From Elusimicrobiota bacterium (GTDB taxonomy: Bacteria > Elusimicrobiota > Elusimicrobia > UBA1565 > UBA9628), in NCBI GenBank assembly GCA_027371715.1, contig DAHXMM010000020.1, positions 1 through 32,000 on the forward strand: a DNA stretch of 32,000 bases, given 5' to 3'. How positions within the stretch are numbered: the stretch's first letter is position 1; each line of letters starts with the position of its first letter. Below the pieces are notes generated by a model. The model ran no database searches. It worked only from the letters and a program-made list of their open reading frames with translations, and was not told the DNA's origin. A program made the position numbers and the translations under genes. Below, piece after piece: positions 3,001 to 31,277 of the stretch.

Positions 3001-4481
3001 CTTTCCCGGCTGATTCCGGCATTATTCCCATCACCAAGTCTCCGGATGTCTTGAGCGTATTTCCGACCAACCTTATCAACCCCGCCGGCGTCGTTCAAGG
3101 CCAAAACGCGCCGGCGACGGAACTCAGTCTGATCACCCAGCACAGTTCGGTGACCTGGACGACGATTGCCGTCCAAAGAAGCGGGACCTTGCCGGATTCG
3201 GGAGTTGATTCCGTCAATGTTTATTACGACGCCGATCAAAACGGGGTGTTTGATTCCTCGGACGTCTTGGTCGGAAGCGCGCCGTTTGTTTCCGGAACGG
3301 CTAACATTTCTTTTTCCACCGCTCAGCTGGTCAATCCCGGAGGTTCGGACTATTTCGTCACGCTTCAAATCGATCCGAACGCCACACCCGGAGATACCAT
3401 TGGAATTTCTCTCTCTGGAAATTCTAACTTTAAGGTTTTGCCTCCAGATACGGTTTCGGGATCGAGCCTTCCTTTTAATTCGGCCCTGGCGCCGGTCTTA
3501 AACATAAAAACTCCGATCACGCCCGTCGTCACATTCCCCAATGGAGATTTTTCCAGTTCCTTTGACTCCATCGGATTTATCTGGTATTCGACCGTCGCCG
3601 TCGGGTCTATTTCAAGCGCGGCCTATGCCGTAGGAACGACGCCCGGGGGAACCGATATTGCGCCCTACACCAATATCCCTTTCGCCGCTTCCAGCTTTAC
3701 CGCGGTCAATCTTCTGCTCAGTAACGGCGCGACCTATTACGTATCTGTCGAAGCGACGTCCAACTACGGTTTTACCAGTCCGCCGGGAACCAGCCCCGGG
3801 TTCCTGGTCGATTTGATTACGCCCATGCCGCCGAGTAGTTTGACGGCTAATGTCGGAGTCAGCTCGATTTATCTCACCTGGAATCCCGGCAGCGCGGGGC
3901 CCTCGGGACTCGCGGGATACCTGCTTGAATATTCCGATGTCGAACATCCGACCTGGTATAACGCGAAAACCGGAGCGGTCTCCGCCCTGGAGATGGGGAC
4001 TGTCCCTAACTCCGCCAGCCCGCATTCCGTCTTGTCGGCGAATTTTATTTCCGCTTCGCCGTTCTTGTTCAATAGCCCGCCGCAAGGAACTCTGATGTTC
4101 CGCGTCAGTTCAGTCAACGGCGCGGGGGTACAAAGCGCGCCTTCCGACACCATTCGCGTGCTTTTTGGGACGCAATCGACGGCGGGAATATCCAACGTTT
4201 CCTCCTATCCCAATCCCTTTAATTCTAATTCCGGCGTGGCCACCATCGTCTATACCTTGGACGCGCCGGGAAGCGTCTCGATTCAAATCTACAGCGTCTT
4301 TGGAAGTCTCGTCAAAAGTTTCTCTTATTCCGGTGGAGGCACGGGGGGAGAAGCCGGAGTCAACACCGTCACCTGGGATGGGACGGATTCCGGGGGCCGC
4401 AAAGTATCGAAGGGAATTTACATTGCCGTCCTTAAAGCCAACGGCATGAGCGTCCAATACAAGATCGGGGTCAATCACTGA
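3..4481 (+). CDS. Very large secreted/surface protein (5' end outside window): fibronectin-III-like domains, five repeated ~150-aa modules, C-terminal FlgD-Ig-like domain
   Basis: Listed ORF starts at an internal TTG (180), but the frame is open back to position 3 (GDHPTSIGSIYESPDGVNWNLVYATST...). C-terminus YPNPFNSNSGVATIVYTLDAPGSVSIQIYSVFGSLVKSF...GVNTVTWDGTDSGGRKVSKGIYIAVLKA resembles FlgD Ig-like/sorting-type domains; FnIII-like YYWRVRTVDGFGGTSPWS. Confidence 0.85.
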   Translation, partial: GDHPTSIGSIYESPDGVNWNLVYATSTDANFGALSDFNGQLYAGSVNGSIYQITPVAATLAGSDGTNAAEKLSATGLNLVQSTSTVTCGGVSPCGATDQIIFTASDLAGNVLESGPYAILVDTTVAPAISTPSYPSNGAYLNYQTNFSWIGPSTTVVSGLLPPSFYQLEVSNNDPTFATTFVNISTPIPPVNTGLATDNGAYISTYTFANLTTYYWRVRTVDGFGGTSPWSETFNFTTDFSSPTAVNGSFATLNSLGGLVPETQVTVLQNGVTAQLNITDIGSGFSAFNSTDYSVRYSTNAGAVWISDPFSALAFTGLIGQTSTQTFTAYGLNLAASTNSIVCAGISPCGASNQIEFTFSDQAGNFTTAGPYAIIVDTHSTDVLVSTADVAPLGIPQNTSVAFIRLTLNSLAGTAPWTGLTVERLGSGTDSDVQNVAIYRDSLGTGIFSPSDTQITQNAVFSGGVVNLTMTNPESITTSTKTYFVVYTAAAGALVGDGLQAEITSTASFTFNGGYAMSAAQTTIYPLISSTATVVDGPNYLYITPTSKAPSDDPPGTANIEMLALKAYTNTGTSTLSKIVFNLLGTGASNDISAISIYRDSNGTGVYANNDELVTSGSDAFLNGVSTVAFTTTIASETVTTSPIYYFVLISLSPNAPLGDTLGVSISTPSNVELIDVLDTTTFTSNPAASSLLTIEYVNTLNVQGASQIPPSLLQGQEYAVLKASFTVSTGETAFDGMDITRLGLGHDSDISAVRIWQDPNPPEAFNPATFLQLSSGSFVNGNAQLNFPLQTLSAGTTYVYYVTYDISPTATQGDTLGGRITSNLDISDTNPGTTIVGNFSINSATSPVVPTTAGLFVGAQNVAPSDLLQGATNQQMLNLTMDTTQYSVLLGALTFNSLGTAASSDISRVEVYQDLVGNGILNTTKDPLLSALSYPFISGTGIIPFSSGITISTISITLLVAVDVSTGANYINNDFGIGIATQANISINSPNFVVPSTTTFPADSGIIPITKSPDVLSVFPTNLINPAGVVQGQNAPATELSLITQHSSVTWTTIAVQRSGTLPDSGVDSVNVYYDADQNGVFDSSDVLVGSAPFVSGTANISFSTAQLVNPGGSDYFVTLQIDPNATPGDTIGISLSGNSNFKVLPPDTVSGSSLPFNSALAPVLNIKTPITPVVTFPNGDFSSSFDSIGFIWYSTVAVGSISSAAYAVGTTPGGTDIAPYTNIPFAASSFTAVNLLLSNGATYYVSVEATSNYGFTSPPGTSPGFLVDLITPMPPSSLTANVGVSSIYLTWNPGSAGPSGLAGYLLEYSDVEHPTWYNAKTGAVSALEMGTVPNSASPHSVLSANFISASPFLFNSPPQGTLMFRVSSVNGAGVQSAPSDTIRVLFGTQSTAGISNVSSYPNPFNSNSGVATIVYTLDAPGSVSIQIYSVFGSLVKSFSYSGGGTGGEAGVNTVTWDGTDSGGRKVSKGIYIAVLKANGMSVQYKIGVNH
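3996..4006. repeat. Dispersed palindrome GGGACTGTCCC (inside the large surface-protein CDS)
   Basis: gagatgGGGACTGTCCCtaactccgcc; read as EMGTVPNS. Confidence 0.9.
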
Positions 4482-5110
4482 CATGAAAAAAAAAGGGACA
4501 GTCCCTTTTTCGGCCGCCCCACATGAGAATCCAGCCCCATTTTCTTTCTTGTCTCCAGCTCACATCCATCATCCACGATATATTTGTAAATCTCCACTCT
4601 CTTTTGGGAAAAGTCAGCCAAAGACAAATAAGCGGGGCTCTCTTCCAAAAAAGGGGACTGTCCCTTTTCTCCCAAATAAAAGCGATAACTGGACCAAGAA
4701 TAATCTTCCGGTTTCCGCGCGATGGCCGCGCGCACGGGATTTAACTCGATATAGCGGCCGCAAAGAAGAAGACTTCGGTCCGTCGGCAATAAAACGCTTT
4801 TATAGCGCCCCTGCCAGAGATGCCCCACCGAGGAATTTTTCTCTCGGAAATAATCGGAATACCCCTGTAAAAGCTTTTGCATCGCCTTGCTCAGGTCTTC
4901 CGGCTTTTGAACCTGGACCAAGAGATGAATATGGTTGGGCATCAGAACATAATGATGGATCCGAAAAGGATTTTTCACCTTGCTCCACCGCAGAATGTCC
5001 AAAAATCTCTCATAATCGGCTGTTTCATGGAACACGGCTTGACGATTATTCCCGCGCGCCATCAAGTGGTAAAACCCTCCTTCAATCAAATGTCTCCCGC
5101 ATCTTGACAT
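4475..5110 (-). CDS. REP-associated tyrosine transposase (RAYT, Y1_Tnp/IS200-like family)
   Basis: HUH motif in HYVLMPNHIHLLVQV, downstream GYSDYFREKNSSVGHLWQGRYKSVLL and YIELNPVRAAIARKPEDYSWSSYRFYLG, characteristic of RAYTs. Confidence 0.92.
   Translation of the reverse strand: MSRCGRHLIEGGFYHLMARGNNRQAVFHETADYERFLDILRWSKVKNPFRIHHYVLMPNHIHLLVQVQKPEDLSKAMQKLLQGYSDYFREKNSSVGHLWQGRYKSVLLPTDRSLLLCGRYIELNPVRAAIARKPEDYSWSSYRFYLGEKGQSPFLEESPAYLSLADFSQKRVEIYKYIVDDGCELETRKKMGLDSHVGRPKKGLSLFFSCQ
4495..4505. repeat. GGGACAGTCCC, A/T-flanked copy (inside RAYT 3' end)
   Basis: aaaaaGGGACAGTCCCttttt. Confidence 0.9.
4654..4664. repeat. GGGACTGTCCC inside RAYT CDS
   Basis: aaaaaaggGGACTGTCCCtttt; RAYT residues EKGQSPFLEE. 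Confidence 0.9.
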
Positions 5111-5186
5111 ATCAGAGTCTCCCCTTATCCGAATTATCTCCTACCTCTCATACGTCAAAAACGAGAAAAAAGTTCCCTCAAAAAAA

Positions 5187-5197
5187 GGGACAGTCCC
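5187..5197. repeat. GGGACAGTCCC, A/T-flanked copy
   Basis: AAAAAAGGGACAGTCCCTTTTTT perfect palindrome 5181-5203. Confidence 0.9.
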
Positions 5198-5205
5198 TTT
5201 TTTCA

Positions 5206-6765
5206 TTGATTCTAAACAAAAAAGGGACAGTCCCTTTTTTCTTATTTCTACTTCTCTCCTCCATATCGGCATCGGCCGCGAGCTTCTATGCGGGTTCTCC
5301 CAACGAGATATTTCAATTCGGCGCGGATGCCAGGGCCATGGGCATGGGCAACGCCTACACCGCCATTGCCGGTGGAGCGTCTTCCCTTTATTACAACCCG
5401 GCGGGCCTCGGTCTTCTCAATGGCCCCGATGTCAGCGCCATGCAGGCCAGTCTTATTGGCGGCGCGGCCTATGAAGATTTATCCTACGCCCAAAATTTCT
5501 CAAAAATGCCGGGAGCTTGGGGCGTTGAAGCCCTCAATATGGGAGTGGGAGGGGCCGAGCAAAGAGACTCTCAAAATAATCTCACCGGAAGCTTTGGTTT
5601 TCAAGAAACCGGATACGGAGCGGGATTTGGCCTAAGGAATGTCGTCATTCCGAACTTATCCTTGGGAGGCTCTTTTCAGGGGCTCAGCCGAAGCTTGGGC
5701 GGTAGTTCTTCCGACATGCTCTATGGAGCGAATTTGGGAGCCCAGTACGGCCCCTTTTTGGACAATATGGTGACCGCGGGTTTGGTCCTCCAAAACGGTT
5801 TTAACGGAGCGCAAAATACCTTTGACCGGCTACCCACGGTTTTACGCGCAGGGCTCGCCGTCACTCCCATCAATAATCTTCTCATTTCCGCGGATTACGG
5901 CGATGATGGCGATTACGGAATCGGCGCGGAATATCGAATATGGATGTTCGCCATACGAGCCGGATATATCCCCCAAGGCCTCACCTTCGGCGCCGGAATC
6001 TATTATCAATCTCTGGAAGCCGATGTCGCGATGGTCAACGATCCAATTTTTGGAATGGGGGAGAGATTCTCGCTTAATTACCGATTCGCGGGAAAGAAGA
6101 AAGAAAAGCCTCTTGAAGCTTACACTAATAGTTATCTGGATGCCGCAAAAAAAGAATTAAGTCTCCGCAATTATCTCAGCGCGCAATTCGCGCTTGAAGA
6201 AGCGATGGGAGTCTCTCCCGCTCAGATTCCTCAGACATGGAAAGAAAAACTCAAACTTCTTCAAGCTTTTAATGGCAGCCTAGATCTCAAAAACCGTCCG
6301 GATGAGGTCAAAACTCTCCTTGCAAAAGATCAACCGGCCATACTCGCCCAAAAATCGGTTTTTTCTTATTTAAACGGACGCGACGGAGACGCCATGATTT
6401 GGGCGTCCGTGGCAGCCGGAACCGCTCATAAATCCATGCCCTATATTGACTTTGTCAAGACGATGGCTTATCTTACGAATATGAAGGTTTCGGAAGGGGA
6501 TTTATTGCCTCCACCAGATTATGTTTCCAAAAAAATGGAGACTGCTCTTCATGCTATTTATCAAAAGCGTTTTGCCAATGCGGTTAAAAATTGCCAACAG
6601 GCCATCGTGGTAAACCCGAAAGAGCCTTCTGCCTGGACGCGGCTGGGTAGCGCTTATTTTGCCTGGGGACATAAGGATGAAGCCAAAAAAGCCTATCAGA
6701 AAGCTTTAGAGCTTGATCCCAAGAACGAAAATTTAAAGAAATTTATGGAGATGTATATCAAATGA
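5206..6765 (+). CDS. PorV/PorQ (UPF0164)-like outer-membrane beta-barrel protein with C-terminal TPR repeats
   Basis: FYAGSPNEIFQFGADARAMGMGNAYTAIAGGASSLYYNPAGLGLLNGPDVSAMQASLI is typical of the PorV-like family; C-terminal EPSAWTRLGSAYFAWGHKDEAKKAYQKALELDPKNENLKKF is a TPR. The track ORF starts at 4483, but 4483-5205 is antisense to the RAYT. TTG 5206 gives MILNKKGTVPFFLFLLLSSISASA/ASF, a plausible signal peptide. Start uncertain. Confidence 0.8.
   Translation: MILNKKGTVPFFLFLLLSSISASAASFYAGSPNEIFQFGADARAMGMGNAYTAIAGGASSLYYNPAGLGLLNGPDVSAMQASLIGGAAYEDLSYAQNFSKMPGAWGVEALNMGVGGAEQRDSQNNLTGSFGFQETGYGAGFGLRNVVIPNLSLGGSFQGLSRSLGGSSSDMLYGANLGAQYGPFLDNMVTAGLVLQNGFNGAQNTFDRLPTVLRAGLAVTPINNLLISADYGDDGDYGIGAEYRIWMFAIRAGYIPQGLTFGAGIYYQSLEADVAMVNDPIFGMGERFSLNYRFAGKKKEKPLEAYTNSYLDAAKKELSLRNYLSAQFALEEAMGVSPAQIPQTWKEKLKLLQAFNGSLDLKNRPDEVKTLLAKDQPAILAQKSVFSYLNGRDGDAMIWASVAAGTAHKSMPYIDFVKTMAYLTNMKVSEGDLLPPPDYVSKKMETALHAIYQKRFANAVKNCQQAIVVNPKEPSAWTRLGSAYFAWGHKDEAKKAYQKALELDPKNENLKKFMEMYIK
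5224..5234. repeat. GGGACAGTCCC, A/T-flanked copy overlapping a predicted signal peptide
   Basis: AAAAAAGGGACAGTCCCTTTTTT perfect palindrome 5218-5240. Confidence 0.9.
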
Positions 6766-6900: not shown

Positions 6901-6903
6901 GCT

Positions 6904-6908
6904 GGAGG
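6904..6908 (+). promoter_or_regulatory. Shine-Dalgarno GGAGG upstream of ATG 6914
   Basis: gctGGAGGttatcATG. Confidence 0.7.
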
Positions 6909-6913
6909 TTATC

Positions 6914-9430: not shown

Positions 9431-9498
9431 CAAAATAATAACAGTCTCTATTTACTTCGTCATTTCTTCATGATTCAATACCATTTTTGTTCTATCCT

Positions 9499-10443
9499 AT
9501 GGGTATGGCTGAAAGTCCGAAAGGTTCCATCTTTTCCTCCTTAAGGGCGCTGGAAGAAATTCCGGAAGAAACTCCCGCCGCGCCTCCGACTTCGCAAAAC
9601 CCTTCACCCTCTCCCACCCCCGCCGCACAAACACCAACGCCCACGCCGCCACCTTCGCAAGCGCCTCCTCCATCAGATGAGACTTTGAAAGCCGTGGAGT
9701 CAAAAATCGAAAAGTTAGAACAAAAAATCCAGGAGATGGGGACAGTCCCCAATTCAGACCCTCATCTTAACCGTATTGAAGCCCTGGAGCAAAAATTGCA
9801 ACAAATGCAGGAACGCGCCATTCAGGCGGAGGTCGCTCTCAGAGAGCGCGAGAAATCCCAAGAAGCCGCCCGGCGCGAGACGGAATCTCTTCTTCAAAAT
9901 TTAGCGTCCCAGCGCCGGCTTGAAGAATCGGACCGGCAAATGAAGGAAAATCTGGCTTATTGCCGACGCCGAATCGAAGAATTGGAGGAAAAACAATCCT
10001 CTATTAAAATTCCGGATACCCAACAATCGGAAAATGAGTTTAAATCCCTCCTAAAAAGTTTTATGGAACAGATCGAGCTAAAAACAACTCCGGTTTTAGC
10101 GTCTCTTGTTGATCTCAGGAAAGAAAATGAAAACCGCGAAAAAGAAAATCGCGGCATGGAGCAAAGGATAAACGAGATTGAGAAAAATATCAATTCTTTT
10201 TTTTCGACAGAGTTAGGGCAAGCGAGCGCTCTAGCAGAAGGATTACGCCACCTAAAACAAACCGTGGAACGAGTCAACACGGAAACCGCGGAAAAACTCG
10301 AAAAAATAAGCGCCGCTCTAAGCCTATTAGAATTTAGGCATTCCCAAGCGAAAAACACAACAGAAGAATTACGCGCTCTCGATAAAGACTTTCAGAAAAT
10401 ACTCTCCATTCTCGATGCCAGCGTTTCCAACTCGCCCAAATAA
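9499..10443 (+). CDS. Pro-rich linker plus long coiled-coil protein, no recognised family
   Basis: PSPSPTPAAQTPTPTPPPSQAPPPS, then heptad-rich ETLKAVESKIEKLEQKIQE...; ATG 9499 preferred over TTG 9487. Confidence 0.75.
   Translation: MGMAESPKGSIFSSLRALEEIPEETPAAPPTSQNPSPSPTPAAQTPTPTPPPSQAPPPSDETLKAVESKIEKLEQKIQEMGTVPNSDPHLNRIEALEQKLQQMQERAIQAEVALREREKSQEAARRETESLLQNLASQRRLEESDRQMKENLAYCRRRIEELEEKQSSIKIPDTQQSENEFKSLLKSFMEQIELKTTPVLASLVDLRKENENREKENRGMEQRINEIEKNINSFFSTELGQASALAEGLRHLKQTVERVNTETAEKLEKISAALSLLEFRHSQAKNTTEELRALDKDFQKILSILDASVSNSPK
9739..9749. repeat. GGGACAGTCCC inside coiled-coil CDS
   Basis: TGGGGACAGTCCCCA 9737-9751; read as EMGTVPNS. Confidence 0.9.
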
Positions 10444-10444
10444 A

Positions 10445-10455
10445 GGGATAGTCCC
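10445..10455. repeat. Degenerate copy GGGATAGTCCC between coiled-coil gene and motA
   Basis: One mismatch; directly after stop codon TAA. Confidence 0.7.
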
Positions 10456-10500
10456 TATTAGTATTTGGAATTCTCTTTTCTTTCCTATATAATAAGCAAC

Positions 10501-11238
10501 ATGGAACTAACATCGATCATCGGTCTAGGGGCTATTCTAATTTTAACTGCGATTGGCCTTGCCACTGGAGGGCTTCCGGCGGTTTTCATCAACTGGCATG
10601 GAATTGGAATCGTGCTTGGGGGAACTTTTTGCGCCCTCATGATCAACACCCCACTGGATATTTTGCTCAGAACCGGATCGTCTGTGACCGATTTAATTTC
10701 GGCCGATCCTTATGTCGACCGGATCGCTCTTGTGGACGCCATCATGACACTAGCACAAGAGGTTCAATCCCGGGGAATTAACGCCTTTAACAATGTCAAT
10801 AAAACAGTGGCCGCCGGGTATCTCGCTTACGCCGCTCAAATCGCGGTTGAATATAACAACCCTGAAACCCTCCGACAGGTGCTGGAAAATGAGATCATTC
10901 AAAATTCCGATTTACAGAACGAAGCGGTCAACGTTTTTAGAACCGCCGGAATTTTGGCGCCGATGTTCGGACTTTTGGGAACCTTAATTGGAATTGTCGA
11001 GGTTCTGCGCCAAATCGCCAACCCCGCACAAGTGGGTTCCGCCATGGCGGTCGCCATTACGACCGCTTTTTATGGCATCGCGACCGCAAACGTTTTTTGC
11101 GTGCCGATAGCCGGTAAACTAAGAATTCGCTACTGGAGAGAAACGCAGGCCAAGACCATGATTTTGGAAGGCGTCTTTGAAATCCTCCAGCGAACGCCCG
11201 CCGTCATTATCTCGCGGAAACTGAAATCTTATCTATGA
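10501..11238 (+). CDS. motA: MotA-like stator proton/ion channel subunit (MotA/TolQ/ExbB superfamily)
   Basis: MELTSIIGLGAILILTAIGLATGGLPAVFINWHGIGIVLGGTFCALMINTP; AGILAPMFGLLGTLIGIVEVLRQIANPAQVGSAMAVAITTAFYGIATANVFCVPIAGKLRIR. Confidence 0.9.
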   Translation: MELTSIIGLGAILILTAIGLATGGLPAVFINWHGIGIVLGGTFCALMINTPLDILLRTGSSVTDLISADPYVDRIALVDAIMTLAQEVQSRGINAFNNVNKTVAAGYLAYAAQIAVEYNNPETLRQVLENEIIQNSDLQNEAVNVFRTAGILAPMFGLLGTLIGIVEVLRQIANPAQVGSAMAVAITTAFYGIATANVFCVPIAGKLRIRYWRETQAKTMILEGVFEILQRTPAVIISRKLKSYL

Positions 11239-11246
11239 ATGAATTG

Positions 11247-11257
11247 GGGACTGTCCC
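11247..11257. repeat. GGGACTGTCCC between motA and motB
   Basis: gaattgGGGACTGTCCCtaattatt. Confidence 0.9.
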
Positions 11258-11269
11258 TAATTATTAATT

Positions 11270-11962
11270 ATGAGACGCTCAAGGCACGAAGACCTCGAAA
11301 ATCAGCTTGCGAAATCCGCCCAATGGGCCATTACCTATGGGGATTTCATGAGTTATCTCATGATTTTCTTTCTCATCATGTTTTCTTTCACGCTTTCAAA
11401 ATCCGGAGGGAAAACTACGGAAAACGTTAAGTATCAGGAATCCCTCATTAAAATTCAGAAGGTCTTTGGCGGGAAGGGAAGCTCCGTGGATTATGATCGC
11501 CTGATTAAGCGCGAAAAAGAAGAGTCCATGGTCACCCAACTTAAACAAGCTCTTGATAAAAAGGATTTGTCAAAATACGCGAAAATAGAAACCTGGGATA
11601 AAAAAATTCGACTCATCTTAGCCAGCGCGGTTCTTTTTGACTCCGGCCGAGCAAGCTTAGCCCCGCGATCGGAAAAAATTTTAGCCGCCGTCGCCCAACA
11701 ACTTAAAACCTTGGACAACCCGATTCAAATTGAAGGGCATACCGATAACGTTCCTATTAACGGCGGACGCTATAAATCCAATTGGGAACTTTCAATGGCG
11801 CGCGCCTACTCAGTTCTCGTTTTTTTTGAGAAACAAGGCATCGCGCCTCAACGTTTGTCCGCCATCGGCTACGGCCAATATCACCCCATCGCCGACAACA
11901 AAACGCCGGAAGGACGCGCTAAAAATCGTAGAATCGAGATAGATTTATTACGGACGGAATGA
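11270..11962 (+). CDS. motB: MotB-like protein (MotB plug + OmpA peptidoglycan-binding domain)
   Basis: WAITYGDFMSYLMIFFLIMFSFTLSKSGG (single TM with conserved Asp) and IEGHTDNVPINGGRYKSNWELSMARAYSVLVFFEKQGIAPQRLSAIGYGQYHPIADNKTPEGRAKNRRIEI. Confidence 0.9.
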   Translation: MRRSRHEDLENQLAKSAQWAITYGDFMSYLMIFFLIMFSFTLSKSGGKTTENVKYQESLIKIQKVFGGKGSSVDYDRLIKREKEESMVTQLKQALDKKDLSKYAKIETWDKKIRLILASAVLFDSGRASLAPRSEKILAAVAQQLKTLDNPIQIEGHTDNVPINGGRYKSNWELSMARAYSVLVFFEKQGIAPQRLSAIGYGQYHPIADNKTPEGRAKNRRIEIDLLRTE

Positions 11963-11976
11963 AAGGGAGATCAAAA

Positions 11977-12999
11977 ATGAAAGAATTGTGGGCTATTCTC
12001 TGCACCATCCTAGTCTTGCCGGTCGCGGCTTTTTCAGCCGCCTCATCCGGAACGAATAATTCGAACACTGCCCCTTATCAAGGAGCCACGGCGCCGCATC
12101 CAAAACTTCCGCAAGATCCTTATCTCACGGCCCTTGACGACATCAAAAGCCCGATTCCCTCGGTTCGTTTGGCGGCAGTTCAAGTTTTAGCTCAAAACCG
12201 TAATCCTGCCTCCATCGCGCCTCTGACCCAAGCCCTTTCCGATAAAAACCCGGCGGTCTGCGCCGCCGCCATTCACGCCTTGGGTCTTTTAAGGGTTAAG
12301 GCCGTAGCTCCAAAAATCGCGCAACTTTTAGCCACCTCCCAAGCTTCCCAAGTCAGGCAAAACGCCGCCGTCGCCTTGGCTTATCTGGCCGATCCGGCGG
12401 CCATCCCCACCTTAATTTCCGCTATTTCCGATTCTCATCGAAGCGTTCGCTATGCGGCAATTAAAACCTTGGGCAGTCTCCACGCCCAGGCTGCATTACC
12501 GGCCCTCATTAACACGCTTAAAAGTTCAAACGCTAATATCCGAGAGACCGCCGCTGCGGCCCTGGGGCAAATTCAATCTCCAAAAGCCTCATCCGCCCTT
12601 GCCGCTTTAACGACCGACCCCAACATCCAAGTTCGAGAGGCCGCCGTCATCGCGCTTGGTTCAACCGGAGGCAAGACCGCCATCTCGCCCCTCCTCAAAG
12701 CGCTTAAGGATTCGAATTTTTCCGTCAGTCTTGATGCGGCCCGCTCTCTTTCAAAACTGGGAAATTTTAAGGGAAAAAGCGTCGCGCTCAAGGGATTGAG
12801 CCAAAAAAACTCCTTTCTCAGGCAAGAAGCCGTCACGGTTTTAGGAATGACCGGAGGGAAAAAAGCTCTCCTTGCGCTTGAAAAACTTTCTAAAAAAGAA
12901 AAAGATCCCGCGACGATTAGCCTCATTGGTTTTGCCGAAGCCCAAATCAAGGGACGCCTTGGAATAAGACCCACGCCTCCTCAATCGCGCAAAAAATGA
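11977..12999 (+). CDS. Exported HEAT-repeat protein
   Basis: Signal peptide MKELWAILCTILVLPVAAFSAA; tandem HEAT units (PSVRLAAVQVLAQ..., SQVRQNAAVALAYLAD..., RSVRYAAIKTLGSLH..., IQVREAAVIALGSTG...). ATG 11977 with upstream GGGAG. Confidence 0.85.
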   Translation: MKELWAILCTILVLPVAAFSAASSGTNNSNTAPYQGATAPHPKLPQDPYLTALDDIKSPIPSVRLAAVQVLAQNRNPASIAPLTQALSDKNPAVCAAAIHALGLLRVKAVAPKIAQLLATSQASQVRQNAAVALAYLADPAAIPTLISAISDSHRSVRYAAIKTLGSLHAQAALPALINTLKSSNANIRETAAAALGQIQSPKASSALAALTTDPNIQVREAAVIALGSTGGKTAISPLLKALKDSNFSVSLDAARSLSKLGNFKGKSVALKGLSQKNSFLRQEAVTVLGMTGGKKALLALEKLSKKEKDPATISLIGFAEAQIKGRLGIRPTPPQSRKK

Positions 13000-15011
13000 G
13001 ACGCCTCTTCGGCCTTTTCTTTTCGCTGGCCTTAAGTTTTCTTTTTATCTTTCTTTATCGGCCAGCCATATTTGAACTCCAAGCCAACGATGTCTTTAAT
13101 AATCTGGAAAACTCTTGGCAGGATTTTCTTTTTCGCGTCAATAGAAATCACCTAAAGCACGGAGACCCTCGCATCATCATCGCGGCCATTGATGATCCCA
13201 CCCTTCATCAATACGGATACCCGCTTCCTAGAATAATTTATGCGAAGCTCTTAGATCGTCTTCACGAGTTAAAAGTCAAGACCGTGGCCTTCGACGTCCT
13301 TTTCGCGGACCCCCGAAAAGGAGATTCTGATTTAGCGCGCGCTCTAGGGAAATTTAATAAAAGCGTTCTCGCCTATGCTTATGATCAAAACAGTTCCGAA
13401 CATTTCGTTTTGCCCACGCGCCCGCTCTATCAAGCCGCAAAAAGACTTGGGTATGTCAATGTGGGAAATTGCATAGATCCTGATGGGCATATCCGAGAAT
13501 TTCAAATTTTTCAGTCTTCTTTTAAAAACCCAAAAACAAATTCGATGGGAGAAGCTCTCTCGGTTCCGACGCTCGCCTATTTTACAGGGCAACTCTTTGA
13601 AAAGACCACCGGCCTCGGCCCAACCGACGCGCATTTCTACATTAATTTTAGGCCGCCTACTTATGCCAACGATCAAGACGTGCTGTTCTCTTATCCCGTT
13701 TTTTCCATCGCCAAGATTTTAAGCAAAAACCTTCCGCAAAAAGAGAAAGATGCTTTAAAAGGAGCCTTAGTTCTTGTCGGCTCAACCGCCCTTTCCGCTT
13801 TCGATCATTATCCCTCGCCCTTTAGCGATGCCAGTCCCGGAGTCGAATATCACGCTAACATTCTGGACAATCTTCTTCATCGCAACTGGATGCGCCCCTT
13901 TTCGCCTTTTTATCAGATATTCATCATACTTTTGTTTATCTGGCTTCCCTTTTTTCTGAGACGCGCGCCGACGCAGTGGGAAACGTTTTCGGTTTTTGGG
14001 GTTTTCTTGGCCTGGCTTTGTTTTTGCGAATGGCAATTTTTGAAAGGAGTTCGCGTGGAATTCGTCCTACCCTCTGCCGCTCTTTTGACGTCTTTTGTCG
14101 GCGAAACTATCCATCAAGCCTTGACCGAGGGGCGGGAGAAAAAATTCATCAAGAACTTATTTACTCAATTTGTCTCTCCCGAAGTGGTTGAGGACCTCGC
14201 CAAAAACCCTGACAAAATTAAACTGGGGGGAGAAAAAAAAGACATGACGGTTCTTTTTTTGGACATCGCCCATTTTACCAGCATCTCAGAAAAAATGTCG
14301 CCGGAAGAACTCATCAAGTTTCTCAATCTCTATCTCTCGCGTTTGAGCCAAGTCATTTACGATTACGGCGGGGTCGTTGATAAATATATTGGAGACTCCA
14401 TCATGGCTTTTTGGAACGCTCCATTAGAAGTAAAATCCCATCGCATGAAGGCCTGCCTTGCGGCGTTATCCCTTCAAGACGCCGTTTTAGAACTCAACAA
14501 AAATCTGCCTTCAAGCATCCCACATCCACCTCAAGTGAGAATTGGAATCAATTCCGGCATTGTCACCGTGGGCCTTACTGGAAGCGAACATAAACTTCAA
14601 TATACCGTGATCGGAGATGAAGTTAATTTAGCCTCTCGCCTTGAAGGGGCCAATAAGTTTTTTAAATCGCAGACCATGATCAGCGAAGCCGTTTACGCCG
14701 AAGCCAAAGCGGAAATAGAGGCTCGGGAAATCGGGATTATCCGCGTTCTTGGGAAAGAAACCCCCATCAAGACTTATCAGATTCTGGCTCGAAAAGGAGC
14801 GCTTTCCCGCTCCTGGAAAACAGCCCTTCCGATTTACAATCAAGCGCTTCAAGACGTACGAAACAAGGAATACGTCAATGCCATCCATCTTTTTGAAACT
14901 TTCCTTAAAATTATTCCCAATGACGGAACCGCCTCATTTTATCTCTCCGCTTGTAAAAAAGCCCAAGAGAGCACTCCATGGGATGGAATTATTCATCTGA
15001 CCTCTAAATAA
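12996..15011 (+). CDS. CHASE2-sensor class III adenylate/guanylate cyclase with C-terminal TPR
   Basis: Periplasmic CHASE2-like IIIAAIDDPTLHQYG.PLPRIIYAKLLDRLHELKVKTVAFDVLFADP; cyclase MTVLFLDIAHFTSISEKMSPEELIKFLNLYLSRLSQVIYDYGGVVDKYIGDSIMAFWNAP; GDEVNLASRLEG. Overlaps the HEAT gene stop (ATGA). Confidence 0.92.
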   Translation: MRRLFGLFFSLALSFLFIFLYRPAIFELQANDVFNNLENSWQDFLFRVNRNHLKHGDPRIIIAAIDDPTLHQYGYPLPRIIYAKLLDRLHELKVKTVAFDVLFADPRKGDSDLARALGKFNKSVLAYAYDQNSSEHFVLPTRPLYQAAKRLGYVNVGNCIDPDGHIREFQIFQSSFKNPKTNSMGEALSVPTLAYFTGQLFEKTTGLGPTDAHFYINFRPPTYANDQDVLFSYPVFSIAKILSKNLPQKEKDALKGALVLVGSTALSAFDHYPSPFSDASPGVEYHANILDNLLHRNWMRPFSPFYQIFIILLFIWLPFFLRRAPTQWETFSVFGVFLAWLCFCEWQFLKGVRVEFVLPSAALLTSFVGETIHQALTEGREKKFIKNLFTQFVSPEVVEDLAKNPDKIKLGGEKKDMTVLFLDIAHFTSISEKMSPEELIKFLNLYLSRLSQVIYDYGGVVDKYIGDSIMAFWNAPLEVKSHRMKACLAALSLQDAVLELNKNLPSSIPHPPQVRIGINSGIVTVGLTGSEHKLQYTVIGDEVNLASRLEGANKFFKSQTMISEAVYAEAKAEIEAREIGIIRVLGKETPIKTYQILARKGALSRSWKTALPIYNQALQDVRNKEYVNAIHLFETFLKIIPNDGTASFYLSACKKAQESTPWDGIIHLTSK

Positions 15012-15735: not shown

Positions 15736-15812
15736 GGGACTGTGCCTCTTCTTCATAATTCTTAAGGGCGGCACTGTCCCGACCTTAAGGTTCTAAGGAA
15801 AGGGACAGTCCC
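15736..15812. repeat. Cluster of three copies: GGGACTGTGCC (15736), GGCACTGTCCC (15770), GGGACAGTCCC (15802)
   Basis: Direct reading of the DUF3307-thiolase intergenic region. Confidence 0.8.
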
Positions 15813-15836
15813 TAATTATTTAAAGGAGGCATTTGT

Positions 15837-19170: not shown

Positions 19171-19242
19171 TGGGCCGTAGAGGATTTGAACCTCTGACAT
19201 CTGTCGTGTGAGGACAGCGCTCTACCGCTGAGCTAACGGCCC
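19171..19242 (-). tRNA. tRNA-Val (anticodon CAC), no encoded CCA
   Basis: Reverse complement folds as GGGCCGT TA GCTC AGCGGTA GAGC G CTGTC CTCACAC GACAG ATGTC AGAGG TTCAAAT CCTCT ACGGCCC A; 7-bp acceptor, anticodon loop CT-CAC-AC. Confidence 0.95.
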
Positions 19243-19268
19243 GACTTTTTGATTTTACAAAATAATTA

Positions 19269-19279
19269 GGGACTGTCCC
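19269..19279. repeat. GGGACTGTCCC between tRNA-Val and FAH gene
   Basis: TTAGGGACTGTCCCTAA 19266-19282, perfect palindrome around a single central T. Confidence 0.9.
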
Positions 19280-19290
19280 TAACTCTGATC

Positions 19291-20328: not shown

Positions 20329-21529
20329 GCGCGGAGACGTCCCTAAAACCCCACACACTGAATTTTACGGGCGAAAAAATATTCTGTCTTTGGAAGAAAT
20401 CCACGGCACCTACGGTTTTTCCGGAGCTTTCTCCCGGAAGATGCACTTGCGTCGCTACCCGACGATTCAAATAGAAAGCCCTAAACTCCTGCCATTAAAC
20501 CTCAGTAGTCCCGTTCTTAAGGACGCGCCGCTCAGCCCCTATCATCTTTTGACCGGAAAAATACCCTCTCAAGGGGTTTTCGAGCGTTCAAGGCATTGTC
20601 TTCTCAAAGGTCCAAGCGCCGTGATTTCAGTTTCCAAACCAACGAATTCTTCTCCTGAAAATGATTTTTTTCGAAACGCGGAAAGGCACGAATGTCTTTT
20701 CGTACAAGAAGGAAACGGAATTTTGGCCAGCGAATACGGCGAGCTCAAATTTCAAGAAAAAAAATATCTCGTCATTCCCAAGGGAACGACCTATCAATTC
20801 CGCCTTTCAAGTAAACGCGCCTTCTTTCTAATCATTGAATCTCTCTACCCTATTCGCTTTGCCCCGCATTACCTTAACTCCGAGGGACAAGCCACTTTGA
20901 TGTCTCCGGTCATTGAGACTGAAATTGGCATTCCCCAGCTCAAAGAGCCTCTGGACATCTCGGGGAAGTTTAACATCCTCTCTAAACATGACGACGGGAA
21001 AATGACAAAGATTGTCTTGGGGCATCACCCCTTTGATCTCATCGGCTGGGAAGGCGCGCTTTACCCCTTTACCTTTGACTCATCCGATCATCATTCCATC
21101 GCGCGCGAAATTCACACCGCCCCGCCGGTTCGGCAAACCTTTCAAGCGGGAAACGCGCCCCATAGCGGATTTTCAATCTGCACTTTCCGCGCTCAAATCG
21201 AGGGATGGAACCCCAAGGACGTGCCCGCGCCCTATGCGCATTATAATGTTGACTCCGATGAAATGATGTTCTTTTCAAACACAAGCTACGGGGCCCGGAA
21301 AGGAATCGTTGAACCCGGTTCCATCACCTTTCATCCCTCGGGTCTTCCGCATAGCCCGCATGGAGACGCCGCAAAAAAGTCCTTTAAATCTCGCGGCACA
21401 CTGTCGGATTATCTAGCCGTCATGTTGGATACATTTTTTGAATCTCTTCAGCCCACAAAAGAAGCCCTTAAATATTGCGACTCCCAATATCCGCTGAGTT
21501 GGGCCAAAGCGGAAGGGGACTGTCCCTAA
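20312..21529 (+). CDS. hmgA: Homogentisate 1,2-dioxygenase-like protein
   Basis: PHTEFYGRKNILSLEEIHGTYGFSGAFSRKMHLRRYPT; HYNVDSDEMMFFSNTSYGARKGIVEPGSITFHPSGLPHSPHGD. ATG 20312 (MSLIVKRGDVPKTPHTEFYG) preferred over 20228, which lies in the FAH gene. Confidence 0.85.
   Translation: MSLIVKRGDVPKTPHTEFYGRKNILSLEEIHGTYGFSGAFSRKMHLRRYPTIQIESPKLLPLNLSSPVLKDAPLSPYHLLTGKIPSQGVFERSRHCLLKGPSAVISVSKPTNSSPENDFFRNAERHECLFVQEGNGILASEYGELKFQEKKYLVIPKGTTYQFRLSSKRAFFLIIESLYPIRFAPHYLNSEGQATLMSPVIETEIGIPQLKEPLDISGKFNILSKHDDGKMTKIVLGHHPFDLIGWEGALYPFTFDSSDHHSIAREIHTAPPVRQTFQAGNAPHSGFSICTFRAQIEGWNPKDVPAPYAHYNVDSDEMMFFSNTSYGARKGIVEPGSITFHPSGLPHSPHGDAAKKSFKSRGTLSDYLAVMLDTFFESLQPTKEALKYCDSQYPLSWAKAEGDCP
21516..21526. 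repeat. GGGACTGTCCC at the hmgA 3' end
   Basis: gcg gaa gGG GAC TGT CCC TAA; the repeat supplies the last codons and leads into the stop. Confidence 0.9.
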
Positions 21530-21533
21530 CTCC

Positions 21534-22920: not shown

Positions 22921-23703
22921 ACTCTGGGGAGGGGGATAAGGTAGTCCGCGCACGGAAAACTCGGCGCTGACATCGCCCAAAATAGCGTTTTCGCCAAAAG
23001 CCGCCATCTCAAGCCTGGCCGAATTAAGCGTTTTCTTCCCACGGCGGATATTGAGGTGAGAGATAAAAACCTTTCCAGAACTCGCGAAATTTTCGCTAAA
23101 GCCAATTTTTTGATCTTCTAATTGATGAGAATTTAAAAACTTTTCCTTTTGACTTCGGTCTAAGATTGAAACAATGACCGGCTGAACCTTAGTCAAACGA
23201 GTTTTCGAAATAAAAAATCTTAACTCCAAATGTTTGCGCAAATCTTTCAAGGATTTAGGAAATAGAGAAACAATAAATTCTCCATTCGAGGAATTTCCGT
23301 AAAATGCGGAAAAGACTTTGGCGGAAGACTCCTCGCCCTTTAAGGCTTTTTTAAGCGTCACTTTTTTAGTCTTTTTGTTTTTAATTTTCTCAACTACATT
23401 TTGAATCTGGCGCACAAAGAAGGCGGATTTAAAGTTTTTCTTTTTCTCTTTAAAAACTTGAATGGGCTTCCAATGGACCGAATCCTTAGGAATGAAAACC
23501 TCTACGGATGCCTTATATTTTTTCTTTTTTTTCTTTAAACTTCCTTTTTTATTTTCTTTCTTAGGACGTTTAAGGGCCAATTTGTGATTAGATTTTGATT
23601 TTTTCGTTGAGGTGCTTGTGGCGACGTTTTGAGCCGGCAAAACAGTAGGAAATGCCGCCCCTAAAAAAAACCACGCCATTAAAATCGAAAAAAATTTTTT
23701 CAA
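22918..23703 (-). CDS. Hypothetical exported Lys-rich protein
   Basis: Signal peptide MKKFFSILMAWFFLGAAFPTVLPAQ followed by a highly basic segment KRPKKENKKGSLKKKKKKYK; 4-bp overlap with valS. Confidence 0.7.
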   Translation of the reverse strand: MKKFFSILMAWFFLGAAFPTVLPAQNVATSTSTKKSKSNHKLALKRPKKENKKGSLKKKKKKYKASVEVFIPKDSVHWKPIQVFKEKKKNFKSAFFVRQIQNVVEKIKNKKTKKVTLKKALKGEESSAKVFSAFYGNSSNGEFIVSLFPKSLKDLRKHLELRFFISKTRLTKVQPVIVSILDRSQKEKFLNSHQLEDQKIGFSENFASSGKVFISHLNIRRGKKTLNSARLEMAAFGENAILGDVSAEFSVRGLPYPPPQS

Positions 23704-26414
23704 GCGAGAACCTTAATCAATTCTTCAAGGCGCGCTTTTTTAGAGAGCGCCGTATCCTGGAGAAACCGCGTTTCAGAGACCTCTTCCATAGCCGCTTTTG
23801 AAAGATAATTGGGATCAGAGAGCTTCTGCGATAATTTGCCCAAATCGTTTTCAACTTTTCCAAGCTCTTTTTTTAAGCGTTCAGATTCTTTCTTAAAATC
23901 AATCAAGCCTTCAAGCGGAACATAGAAGGTAAAGTGCGGAGTCACCGTGGAAGCCGCCTTGGTGGGCAGAGATTCTCGCTTAGAACTTAAGAAAGAAATC
24001 TCTCTTCCCCCGGCTAACGCCGCTAAATAAAGAAGATTCTCTTTTAAGAAGTTTGTCTCTGCGGCGTCTTCGCTTTGACAAATGACGGGAATCTTAAGCC
24101 CTGGAGAGATGCCCAGCTGCGCGCGCAAGGACCTTAAAGACTTAACCGCTTCAATTAAAGCGCTCATTCCTTTTTGGGTTTCTTCCGTAATTTTAATTTC
24201 CGGGACATTTGGAAAACGGGAATTCATCAAAAAATCCGCGGGTTCGGTATCCCAAGTTTTTAGGACCGAATAAATTTCTTCCGTGACAAAAGGCATCAAG
24301 GGATGAAGCATTTTAACGACGCCATTTAAAACGGTTATTAAAACGCGAAACGCCGTTTTTTTGGCTCTTAGATCGGCGCCTTGAAGGCGGAGTTTTGCTA
24401 TTTCTACATACCAATCGCAAAACTCATCCCACAAAAACTCATACATTTTCTCCGTCGCGTTGGCGAGATTATAAATTTCAATTTCTTCTTGAACGGAAAG
24501 AATCATCTTTTGGTATTCAGACAAGATCCAAACATCCGCCGCCTCTAATTGGAAGTTAGGGACTGTCCCTAACTCTTCAGGGGCGACCGCATTCATCAAG
24601 GCAAAGCGCGCGGTATTCCAGAGTTTATTGGTAAAATTTCGTCCGGCAATCAGCGAATCTTCCGAAAATAAGATGTCTTTTCCGGGACGGGCTTGGGAAA
24701 TTAAGGAAAAGCGAAGAGCGTCGGTTCCATATTTGTCCATCATCTCGATCGGATCGATAACGTTTCCGAGAGACTTCGACATTTTTTTTCCCTTTTTATC
24801 GCGAATGATGCCGTGGATAAACGCTTCGGAAAAGGGGACCTTCCCGGTTAAATAGAGACCCATCATCTGCATACGAGCGACCCACAGATAGATAATTTCG
24901 TATCCCGTGACGAGAATTTGAGTTGGGTAATAACGCTGGAGATCCTGATTTTTTTCCGGCCAGCCAAAAACGGAGAAAGGCCAAAGGGCCGAGGAAAACC
25001 AGGTGTCTAAAACGTCGGGGTCTTGAATCAATTCCAAATGACCGCAAACAGAACAAGCCTTTGGCTTTTCGCGAGAGACCACTCCCCTAAGATTAGGAAT
25101 TTGATGGAAAGATGAGTCTTTTGAAATCGCGTTGCATTTAAGACAGTACCAAACGGGAATTTCATGTCCCCACCAAATTTGGCGGGAGACGCACCAATCG
25201 CGAATATCGAGGAGCCAGTTCCTATAAGGCTCTTTCCAGGAGGCCGGATAAATTTTAAATTGGTTATTCTCCAAAGTCTTCAAAGCCCCGGCGGCCAAGT
25301 CCTTGGTTTTAACAAACCACTGCCAGGAAAGAAGCGGTTCAATAATTTCCTGACAACGATAACAAATTCCGACCGCGTGCGGATGGGTTTCCGTCTTTTC
25401 CAAAAAGCCTTGGAATTCCAAGTCTTGAATAATTTTTTTGCGCGCATCTTCTCTGGACAATCCGGCATAAAGGCCGCCTTCTTCAGTGATTTTTCCGGAA
25501 GGGGAAATGACCTTGATGCGGGGAAGTTGATGCCGAAGACCCATTTCAAAGTCATTGGGATCATGAGCGGGAGTGACCTTGACGGCTCCCGTTCCAAAAG
25601 AAGACTCGACAAAACCATCTTCAATCACCGGAATTTCTCGGTTCACAAGCGGCAAGCGAAGTTTTTTTCCAATTAAAGACCGATAGCGCTTGTCCTCGGG
25701 GTAAACGGCGACCGCGACATCTCCCAGCATGGTTTCAGGCCGGGTGGTGGCCACAACCAACCCCGGTCCGCCGGAAGCCTCCGGGTAGCGGATATGCCAG
25801 AGATTTCCCTTTCTTTCCTCATGCTCAACTTCTATGTCGGATAAAGCCGTTCCGCATCTCACGCACCAGTTGACCAACCGCTCCCCGCGGTAAAGAAGCC
25901 CGTCATCCCACAATTTTTTAAACGCCTCAAAAACGGCCGCTTTTCGTTTTTCATCCATCGTAAAGGACTCACGGCTAAAATCAAGCGAACATCCGAGTTT
26001 CTTGAGTTGCCCCAAAATCGTCTCTTTACAATGAAGCGTCCAATCTTCCATGCGCTGGGTAAAAGCCTCCCTTCCAATTCTAACGCGAGAAGTGTTTTCA
26101 GCCTTTAAAATTTTTTCCATTACGGTTTGAGTCGCGATGCCGCCGTGATCGGTTCCAGGAACCCAGCAGAGATCTTTTCCTGACATTCTCTTTAAGCGGG
26201 CCAGAAAATCTTGAATGGTATTATTGAGCGCATGCCCAACATGAAGCGCTCCCGTTACATTCGGAGGGGGAATGACCAGGGAATACGGTTCTTGATTTAA
26301 ATCAGGATGAGAATTGAAAATCCCCGATTGAGCCCAATGGTTCACCCAGCGAGCCTCAACATCCTTGGGACTATAGGCTTTGTCCCAGGTTTTTATTTCG
26401 GTCGTTTCATTCAT
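23700..26414 (-). CDS. valS: Valyl-tRNA synthetase
   Basis: IPPPNVTGALHVGHALNNTIQDFLARLKRMSGKDLCWVPGTDHGGIATQ; GKKMSKSLGNVIDP; C-terminal coiled-coil. Confidence 0.98.
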   Translation of the reverse strand: MNETTEIKTWDKAYSPKDVEARWVNHWAQSGIFNSHPDLNQEPYSLVIPPPNVTGALHVGHALNNTIQDFLARLKRMSGKDLCWVPGTDHGGIATQTVMEKILKAENTSRVRIGREAFTQRMEDWTLHCKETILGQLKKLGCSLDFSRESFTMDEKRKAAVFEAFKKLWDDGLLYRGERLVNWCVRCGTALSDIEVEHEERKGNLWHIRYPEASGGPGLVVATTRPETMLGDVAVAVYPEDKRYRSLIGKKLRLPLVNREIPVIEDGFVESSFGTGAVKVTPAHDPNDFEMGLRHQLPRIKVISPSGKITEEGGLYAGLSREDARKKIIQDLEFQGFLEKTETHPHAVGICYRCQEIIEPLLSWQWFVKTKDLAAGALKTLENNQFKIYPASWKEPYRNWLLDIRDWCVSRQIWWGHEIPVWYCLKCNAISKDSSFHQIPNLRGVVSREKPKACSVCGHLELIQDPDVLDTWFSSALWPFSVFGWPEKNQDLQRYYPTQILVTGYEIIYLWVARMQMMGLYLTGKVPFSEAFIHGIIRDKKGKKMSKSLGNVIDPIEMMDKYGTDALRFSLISQARPGKDILFSEDSLIAGRNFTNKLWNTARFALMNAVAPEELGTVPNFQLEAADVWILSEYQKMILSVQEEIEIYNLANATEKMYEFLWDEFCDWYVEIAKLRLQGADLRAKKTAFRVLITVLNGVVKMLHPLMPFVTEEIYSVLKTWDTEPADFLMNSRFPNVPEIKITEETQKGMSALIEAVKSLRSLRAQLGISPGLKIPVICQSEDAAETNFLKENLLYLAALAGGREISFLSSKRESLPTKAASTVTPHFTFYVPLEGLIDFKKESERLKKELGKVENDLGKLSQKLSDPNYLSKAAMEEVSETRFLQDTALSKKARLEELIKVLA
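24559..24569. repeat. GGGACTGTCCC inside valS
   Basis: GTTAGGGACTGTCCCTAAC 24555-24573, perfect 19-bp palindrome; valS residues EELGTVPNF. Confidence 0.92.
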
Positions 26415-31248: not shown

Positions 31249-31277
31249 CGGGAATTGAGGACAGTCCCCAATTCCCG
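31249..31277. repeat. 29-bp near-perfect palindrome containing a degenerate copy
   Basis: CGGGAATTGAGGACAGTCCCCAATTCCCG, one mismatched pair (31258/31268). Confidence 0.85.

Follow-up and report, generated by a model that had tools for sequence, protein, structure and literature searches.

A 21-nt palindrome in valS of an Elusimicrobiota bacterium belongs to a transposase-associated repeat family and probably overwrote a variable loop without changing its length

The stretch analyzed here (the window) comprises positions 1 to 32,000 of contig DAHXMM010000020.1 (assembly GCA_027371715.1), from an Elusimicrobiota bacterium, and it carries, within the gene of the valyl-tRNA synthetase (ValRS), valS, a perfect 21-nt palindrome that is one copy of a dispersed repeat. 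The favored reading, to which a probability of roughly 0.8 is given, is that this repeat is the cognate DNA of a TIRYT-type REP-associated tyrosine transposase (RAYT; REP, repetitive extragenic palindromic) encoded at 4475-5110, and that the valS copy arose through a templated overwrite, at the same length, of a loop of the enzyme.

A first-pass annotation, made from the sequence alone, had described a perfect 19-bp palindrome at 24555-24573, and both the 19-mer GTTAGGGACTGTCCCTAAC and its position were recovered, although the true unit is longer, running from 24554 to 24574 as the perfect palindrome AGTTAGGGACTGTCCCTAACT, i.e., AGTTAGGGAC-T-GTCCCTAACT, with 10-nt arms and one central base. 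The coding strand of valS reads GAG TTA GGG ACA GTC CCT AAC TTC across it, which is translated in frame as E-L-G-T-V-P-N-F, and the accompanying claim of an in-frame palindrome encoding ELGTVPN inside the synthetase gene was borne out by the open reading frame (ORF), which is intact and whose product matches the Thermus thermophilus ValRS 1GAX (E=6.6e-221) and presents the KMSKS motif and all of the expected Pfam domains. The nearest named matches of this ValRS are metagenome-assembled genomes of Elusimicrobiota. The palindrome is not an assembly artefact, given that the same site was found in two independent conspecific assemblies (L211 and L212). As single-stranded DNA, the 21-mer is predicted to fold at -7.1 kcal/mol (z = -4.9).

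The position of the palindrome in a short variable connection, also proposed at the outset, agrees with the AlphaFold2 model of the enzyme (mean predicted local distance difference test score, pLDDT, of 87.3), in which residues 614-621 fall in the connection 608-624, between the predicted helices 587-607 and 625-646, so that the copy lies in a loop of an intact ORF. The block 611-620, with a mean pLDDT of 69, is among the lowest 10-residue blocks of the model, and the segment varies in both length and sequence across ValRSs, in agreement with a low-confidence loop.

At up to three mismatches, the 19-mer has nine matches in the window, against 0.00 expected, and the core of the family, GGGACWGTCCC, is found 11 times exactly (starting at 3996, 4495, 4654, 5187, 5224, 9739, 11247, 15802, 19269, 21516, and 24559) and 16 times at up to one mismatch, against 0.34 expected. 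This enrichment and the shared core uphold the earlier view of the palindrome as a copy of a dispersed mobile-type repeat, a view which had nevertheless passed over the transposase gene in the same window. In a profile of 41 copies from the clade, the constraint covers exactly the 21 positions from -10 to +10, with near-random composition outside them, and the consensus, A-R-W-W-R-GGGAC-W-GTCCC-Y-W-W-Y-T, is self-complementary. The perfect arms reach a mean of 3.4 nt past the core, against approximately 0.33 by chance, and two flank subfamilies dominate, one with an A-run and a T-run, and the other with AGTTA and TAACT, to which the valS copy is a perfect match, the identical 21-mer being found in two other loci (L002, position 15292, and L008, position 3020).

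According to a tally from the gene calls, the window has approximately 1.1 kb of intergenic DNA (~3.5%) against 30.9 kb of genes, and five of the exact copies are intergenic, two overlap gene ends, and four are inside ORFs (six in genes altogether), which represents an intergenic density some 23-fold higher than the genic one, at an overall rate of roughly one copy per 3 kb. As counted within these 32 kb, the family is thus short, hairpin-forming, predominantly extragenic, and present in high copy number. Orthologous spacers differ among species in the presence or absence of the intergenic copies.

The agent to which the repeat is linked was first seen as a Y1_Tnp gene in a sister locus, between the surface-protein gene and a TPR gene, and its orthologues occupy the same locus in L204, L205, and L207-L210. 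The product encoded in the window scores 87.4 bits against the NCBIfam model NF047646 ("REP-associated tyrosine transposase"; curated cut-off of 80) and 1.4e-15 against Pfam Y1_Tnp, and its best match in the PDB is 4ER8, the TnpA-REP of Escherichia coli. It is a Y1 HUH enzyme with the motifs NHIH (HuH), WQ, and RYIELNPV, the last of which is the catalytic-tyrosine motif of the Y...NP type. The gene has copies of the repeat on both sides, upstream at 5187 and 5224, and in its 3' tail at 4654 and 4495, and is flanked likewise in L204 and L205. The annotated C-terminus of the transposase is partly encoded by the repeat, given that the ORF reads through two or three copies overall: in the window (4475-4700, minus strand) the tail reads ..KGQSPF.. 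and ..KKGLSLFF*, and in L204 (4925-5150, minus strand) it reads ..KKGTVPFFEISPKKGTVPFF..*. Many of the homologues of the transposase in the protein database lie on contigs of 1-2 kb, which would be expected if the flanking repeats break assemblies. When GTVP, GQSP, and similar tetrapeptides were taken as a proxy for adjacent repeats in 120 homologues, they were found only in close Elusimicrobiota relatives.

The sister species indicate how the copy came to be in valS. The close relatives of the ValRS are P0002 (85% identity, locus L001), P0005 (78%, L003), and P0003/P0004 (79% and 78%), and all of these loci present the gene neighborhood of the window with no motif in valS. The palindrome is present in both of the conspecific assemblies that cover the gene and absent from the sister species, in which VAPEELGTVPNFQLEAA of the window is matched by VSPEELGDLQDFPLEAA, VNLEKLNSPTDSQLEAA, and a loop three residues longer. 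The alignment with the ValRSs of close relatives that had been suggested as a check indicates that LGTVPN is absent from all of the other ValRSs examined, with LGDLQD, LNSPTD, or IETQDLA in the sisters, and the conservation of LGTVPN in ValRSs that lack the repeat, named in advance as the outcome that would have refuted the idea, was not observed.

What could not be sustained is the word "inserted". The loop has 17 residues in the species of the window, in P0002, and in P0005, and the valS DNA of the window, L001, and L003 aligns without gaps; given these equal lengths and the gapless alignment, the repeat replaced 21 nt and added no residues. The loop of the window is, in fact, among the shortest of the clade, with the deeper relatives mostly presenting longer ones. 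The 21-nt block is identical to L001 in 10/21 positions, against 81.9% for the gene as a whole, which places it in the lowest 1.2% of the 21-nt windows and makes it one of three hot-spots of divergence between the two sequences. It is implausible that point mutations arising independently produced a 21/21 match to the consensus, so that a templated event explains the block best. L001 and L003 both have GAT-T at its 3' edge, which indicates that the repeat arose in the lineage of this species and is not an older sequence that was lost by decay from the sisters. The proposal that the synthetase tolerates a mobile-looking peptide stands in part, then, as the ORF is intact and the loop tolerant, but no residues were added to it.

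Other genes of the window contain in-frame copies with a different history. The surface-protein gene has exactly 21 extra nt (AGATGGGGACTGTCCCTAACT), equivalent to seven amino acids, between conserved flanks, in comparison with L204 and L205, and its product, unlike the ValRS, is longer by the peptide of the element, which points to a 21-nt unit that can truly insert in frame. The in-gene copy with its core at 9739 is older: the core is present at this site in L205, whose protein is only 37% identical, L204 lacks it, and L206 presents the degenerate palindrome TTGGGAAATATTCCCAA. In valS, the surface-protein gene, and the coiled-coil protein gene alike, the copy reads GTVPN. In the TTA...TAA subfamily (TTAGGGACWGTCCCTAA), the two remaining frames hold TAG or TAA on either strand, and a surviving genic copy must therefore read (L/M)-G-T-V-P-N.

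The link between repeat and transposase was also followed beyond the clade in two directions. From the side of the motif, a pattern scan of the species-representative genomes, which yielded at least about 120 loci, was followed by tblastn with the transposase of the window, and, among the loci listed, the exact core was found directly on both sides of homologous transposases in Carboxydothermus (L093), Sedimentisphaerales (L100), Sphingorhabdus (L091), and Novosphingobium (L059). From the side of the protein, four homologues with 42-52% identity, picked regardless of the motif, were found to be flanked by GGGGACAGACCCC, GGGGTCAGACCCC, GGGGACGGTTCT...AGAACCGTCCCC, and GGGGACGCTT...AAGCGTCCCC, and the homologous transposases of other phyla have either the same core or GGGGAC...GTCCCC variants beside them. 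In the surroundings of valS in 80 unrelated metagenome contigs, taken as a control and amounting to 1.2 Mb, there were 0 cores and 0 transposase homologues; the ValRSs of these contigs are at most 52% identical to that of the window and were of no use for the question of the loop, so that only their DNA served. As judged from these sequences, the link holds beyond this lineage in both directions of search. The core also occurs in multiple copies with lineage-specific palindromic flanks in L036, L041, L059, L066, and L091 (Sphingomonadales), and in L037, L100, L023, L070, L118, L009, L029/L101, and L076; an example is AAAATAGGGACAGTCCCTATTTT in the Sphingomonadales, and the copies in these loci are often paired, 15-65 bp apart. 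Single matches to the core in other taxa are at the level of chance for 596 Gb of sequence.

Judging from its analogues, E. coli TnpA-REP and the IS200/IS605 transposases, the transposase of the window would bind the hairpin of the repeat on single-stranded DNA, cut it, and rejoin it, with the binding and cleavage of a single-stranded repeat having been shown only for E. coli TnpA-REP (PMC3479197). This activity would spread or homogenize the copies, chiefly in the intergenic spacers, and, within genes, only those copies would survive that are in frame, contain no stops, and fall where the protein tolerates them. The templated event in valS would have written the consensus 21-mer over seven codons of the variable loop, at the entrance to the anticodon-binding helical domain, either through transposition with an equal-sized loss or through short-patch conversion from another copy. 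This would have occurred after the split from the sister species, leaving the loop length and the enzyme intact, and was presumably neutral for its function.

Several points weigh against this reading. A copy that adds no length, such as that of valS, is not what a simple cut-and-paste event would predict. The REP tag is absent, given that GT[AG]G or C[TC]AC is found within 15 nt of 2/41 copies, against approximately 17% by chance, and that the flank profile of the 41 copies at the foot of the hairpin, where the tag would stand, is A-R-W-W-R. In addition, no repeat position differs among six conspecific contigs (99.7-99.98% identity), which give no sign of current mobility. Finally, TIRYTs probably correspond to TnpA-Y1 subclass 2.1 and to Bertels group 1, and the genes of subclass 2.1 have been described without REP-like sequences nearby (Quentin et al. 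2018, PMC6006769); the putative assignment of the transposase of the window to this subclass rests, for its part, on three short motifs.

The most direct rival is a simple in-frame insertion, through which the transposed repeat would have lengthened the loop by some 6-7 residues, as Rickettsia palindromic elements (RPEs) do. The valS unit is exactly 21 nt, i.e., seven codons, and the same 21-nt unit did insert in frame at 3991-4011, but the gapless DNA and the 17-residue loop of all three species make such an event unlikely in valS, given also that the loops of the deeper relatives are longer, rather than shorter, and that the GAT-T shared by the sisters points to ancestral sequence in those very positions. 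It is also highly improbable that the loop drifted by point mutation into a repeat-like sequence by chance. This would be helped by the hypervariability of the loop, in which almost no residues are common to the three species, and by the 10 of 21 positions at which the sister sequence already matches the repeat, but eleven specific substitutions would still be required to reach the full consensus, AGTTA/TAACT flanks included, and window shuffles yield no match. Furthermore, the 32 kb contain GTVPN copies in three ORFs and two more copies, in another frame, in the transposase ORF, where approximately 0.015 exact cores would be expected (an estimate, from 2/4^11 per site).

Another possibility is a motif driven by methylation or mismatch repair, in which biased substitution would create GGGACWGTCCC genome-wide, valS included, in a manner similar to that of HIP1, a palindrome that is common inside genes and goes with methyltransferases, with no transposase associated with it. 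The change of the valS site without an indel, the W-centered palindromic core, which is typical of type II restriction-modification sites, and the patchy distribution of the family across phyla would all fit such a process. On the other hand, the 21-mer is sharply bounded and palindromic even in its variable flanks, there is an exact indel of 21 nt, the intergenic excess is unlike HIP1, the Y1 transposase is tightly linked in both search directions, and no methyltransferase gene was found in the window, all of which leaves this process very unlikely. A selected cis-element in valS, either an operator bound by a protein or a regulatory hairpin in the mRNA, is considered extremely unlikely, even though a stable hairpin is predicted and the palindrome is perfect in every conspecific assembly examined that covers valS, given that it is absent from all of the sister valS genes despite the same gene neighborhood, that the identical sequence is scattered beside unrelated genes, and that it has no Rfam match.

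A bolder version of the templated overwrite, which is doubtful but deserves mention, is that the 21-nt palindrome would consist of two abutted recognition tips (GGGAC and GTCCC), and nothing more, and would be a complete minimal mobile unit, with the Y1 transposase or hairpin-templated repair overwriting the resident sequence at equal length. If this were true, the unit would be among the smallest known, the loops of essential proteins, such as the ValRS, would be open to rewriting by it, and its core would have travelled together with a single clade of transposases through five phyla or more. The features of the window that bear on these readings are collected in Table 1.

Table 1. Repeat copies and associated genes in the 32,000-nt window.
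Feature	Position	Strand	Remarks
valS repeat copy	24554..24574	.	perfect 21-nt palindrome AGTTAGGGACTGTCCCTAACT; (E)LGTVPN(F), ValRS residues 614-621
valS, intact 904-aa valyl-tRNA synthetase	23700..26414	-	ORF, 1GAX match, Pfam domains
RAYT (Y1 HUH enzyme), 211 aa	4475..5110	-	NCBIfam NF047646, Pfam Y1_Tnp, 4ER8
Two repeat copies, cores 5187 and 5224, flanked by A and T runs	5182..5239	.	just upstream of the transposase gene
Repeat copy, 3' end of the transposase ORF	4490..4510	.	14 nt past the stop codon of the surface-protein gene
Repeat copy, C-terminal tail of the transposase ORF	4649..4669	.	reads KGQSP
21-nt in-frame insertion AGATGGGGACTGTCCCTAACT, surface-protein gene 180-4481	3991..4011	.	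adds EMGTVPN; gapped alignment vs L204, L205
In-gene copy, coiled-coil protein gene (9499-10443)	9734..9754	.	reads EMGTVPNS
Intergenic copy, motA/motB spacer	11242..11262	.	site conserved in L204, L205, L206
Intergenic copy, DUF3307 gene/thiolase gene spacer	15797..15817	.	exact core
Intergenic copy, tRNA-Val(CAC)/fumarylacetoacetate (FAA) hydrolase gene spacer	19264..19284	.	exact core
Copy over the end of the homogentisate dioxygenase gene	21511..21531	.	supplies the stop codon, GGG GAC TGT CCC TAA
Degenerate copy GGGATAGTCCC, spacer upstream of motA	10440..10460	.	absent from L204
Degenerate copy AGGACAGTCCC, ATTG/CAAT flanks	31253..31273	.	upstream of the arginine decarboxylase gene

The distance to the next start codon downstream is 7-24 nt for many copies, and those flanked by A and T runs resemble bidirectional terminators and may have a secondary role; as the primary reading, a terminator, promoter, or transcription-factor site was dropped in view of the copies inside genes, the indel of 21 nt, and the link to the transposase. 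The FAA hydrolase, flavin reductase, and motB genes, which are directly downstream of copies, have no recognizable Shine-Dalgarno sequence. A known structured-RNA family was likewise dismissed, as a scan of the whole window against Rfam (E<=1) returned nothing at the repeat copies save chance-level matches to plastid and miRNA hairpins at 5187/5224. A search of the literature for the motif, exact or degenerate, returned only incidental primers or NF-kB sites, with no paper of the library searched spelling it out.

In the homogentisate dioxygenase gene, the last four codons and the TAA (..G D C P *) come from the repeat (21516-21529), and the next gene starts 7 nt further on. The tRNA-Val(CAC) gene (19171-19242, minus strand) is 22 nt from the copy at 19264-19284, and another copy, in L008, abuts an apparent partial tRNA gene. 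At 15736-15780, a 45-nt composite, GGGACTGTGCC-N23-GGCACTGTCCC, has a core that is apparently split by a 23-nt insert, and a near-identical sequence, reverse-complemented, occurs at 9898-9942 of L204, in a non-orthologous spacer of a sister species; this composite may be a second mobile derivative, similar to a REPIN.

The spacer at 6765-6913, between the TPR and histidine-kinase genes, holds a long inverted repeat of another kind, with one GAAAG-rich and one CTTTC-rich arm and a weak, chance-level match to Rfam; two copies of the palindromic repeat are found there instead in L204 and L205, and a similar GAAAG/CTTTC hairpin occupies another spacer in L206. The adjoining conserved cluster (6914-15011) encodes a histidine kinase fused to FliF-C and FliG-M/C domains, a coiled-coil protein, MotA and MotB homologues, a HEAT-repeat protein, and a CHASE2 adenylate/guanylate cyclase, in the same order as in L204, L205, and L206, and, with no other flagellar genes in the window, it may be a non-flagellar stator/FliG signaling module. 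The surface-type protein (180-4481) starts outside the window, its 1,433-aa ORF being the C-terminal part only, and exceeds 2,490 aa in the conspecific contig L207; it has weak fn3, FlgD-Ig, and BNR-associated matches, near or below the Pfam cut-offs.

Through these results, an unusual peptide of an essential enzyme is connected with a definite agent, whose gene is 19 kb away in the same window, and one tiny repeat is seen to have had two outcomes within 32 kb, a clean in-frame insertion of 21 nt and a same-length replacement. They also account, in terms of annotation, for recurrent GTVP(N) peptides, for stop codons supplied by repeats, and for the fact that these assemblies are fragmented near the transposase genes. 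From the Elusimicrobiota to the Sphingomonadales, Firmicutes, and Planctomycetota, the 11-nt core is conserved, and the 21-mer provides a defined and very short substrate for the testing of "domesticated" Y1 transposases.

Among the known systems, HIP1 (GCGATCGC) of the cyanobacteria is similar in being a short, GC-rich, over-represented palindrome that is found inside genes without a change in length, but the family of the window, whose unit is 21 nt long, is strongly intergenic and is linked with a Y1 transposase. The canonical REP/RAYT systems (REPtrons and REPINs; E. coli TnpA-REP, 4ER8; PMC3479197; PMC3116915) share with it high-copy short palindromes that are mostly extragenic and often in close pairs, as well as a transposase gene that is flanked by its own repeats and is above the cut-off of the RAYT equivalog model of NCBIfam. 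The repeat of the window differs from the REPs in that its hairpin has no GT[AG]G tag at the base and in its shorter unit, of 21 nt with a 3-nt apical loop, and it has no orientation, given that it is perfectly symmetrical. Given the absence of the canonical tag, the family is filed under the palindromic repeats associated with RAYTs/TIRYTs, and not under the canonical GTAG REPs.

The closest likeness is to the TIRYT ("TIRtron") genes, whose flanking terminal inverted repeats (TIRs) share GGGGWSAS, and among which some families are self-complementary and occur in moderate numbers across the genome (Di Nocera et al. 2013, PMC3733652). The transposase of the window is likewise a Y1 HUH enzyme, has the motifs NH[IV]H, W[EQ], and YIELNP and a C-terminal tail of approximately 70-100 aa, and lies between inverted repeats with tips of the GGGGWSAS type, which read GGGGACAG in the copies with a fourth G; the tips beside the homologues found from the protein side are GGGGACAG.., GGGGTCAG.., GGGGACGG.., and GGGGACGC.. 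On the other hand, the repeat is not a long TIR but a 21-nt perfect palindrome, essentially two abutted tips, its copies reach about one per 3 kb in the window, and an identical 11-nt core accompanies homologous transposases in several phyla. TnpA-Y1 subclass 2.1 is characterized by NHVH or NH[YF]H as the HuH motif, W[EQ], the tyrosine motif YIELNP, a C-terminal tail domain, and a median length of 238 aa (Quentin et al. 2018, PMC6006769), and the transposase of the window and its orthologues match it in YIELNP and WQ, with NHIH as the HuH motif in the window and NHVH in L204/L205, and a length of 211-224 aa. The dense repeat family found here is a departure from the published picture of this subclass, and it would mean that a RAYT group described as being without REP-like repeats can associate with a family of short palindromes.

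Repeats within genes have precedents of their own, given that REPs and RPEs are known inside genes, with REPs in the tRNA synthetase genes of X. oryzae, E. litoralis, and S. alaskensis (PMC3733652), and that in-frame REPs are known within RAYT genes (Quentin et al. 2018, PMC6006769). The likeness lies in the in-frame palindromic repeat tolerated, presumably in loops, by functional genes that include those of aminoacyl-tRNA synthetases, and in the stop codon given to a neighboring ORF, here that of the homogentisate dioxygenase; the difference is that the reported elements add roughly 7-50 aa, whereas the valS copy adds none, and that the unit of the window is far smaller than the ~100-150 bp of the RPEs. 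A palindromic repeat inside genes, tRNA synthetase genes included, is thus a rare but already documented fate, and what is less expected is the occurrence of a dense family of 21-nt perfect palindromes with a subclass 2.1-like transposase, an 11-nt core that crosses phyla, and a same-length replacement in valS.

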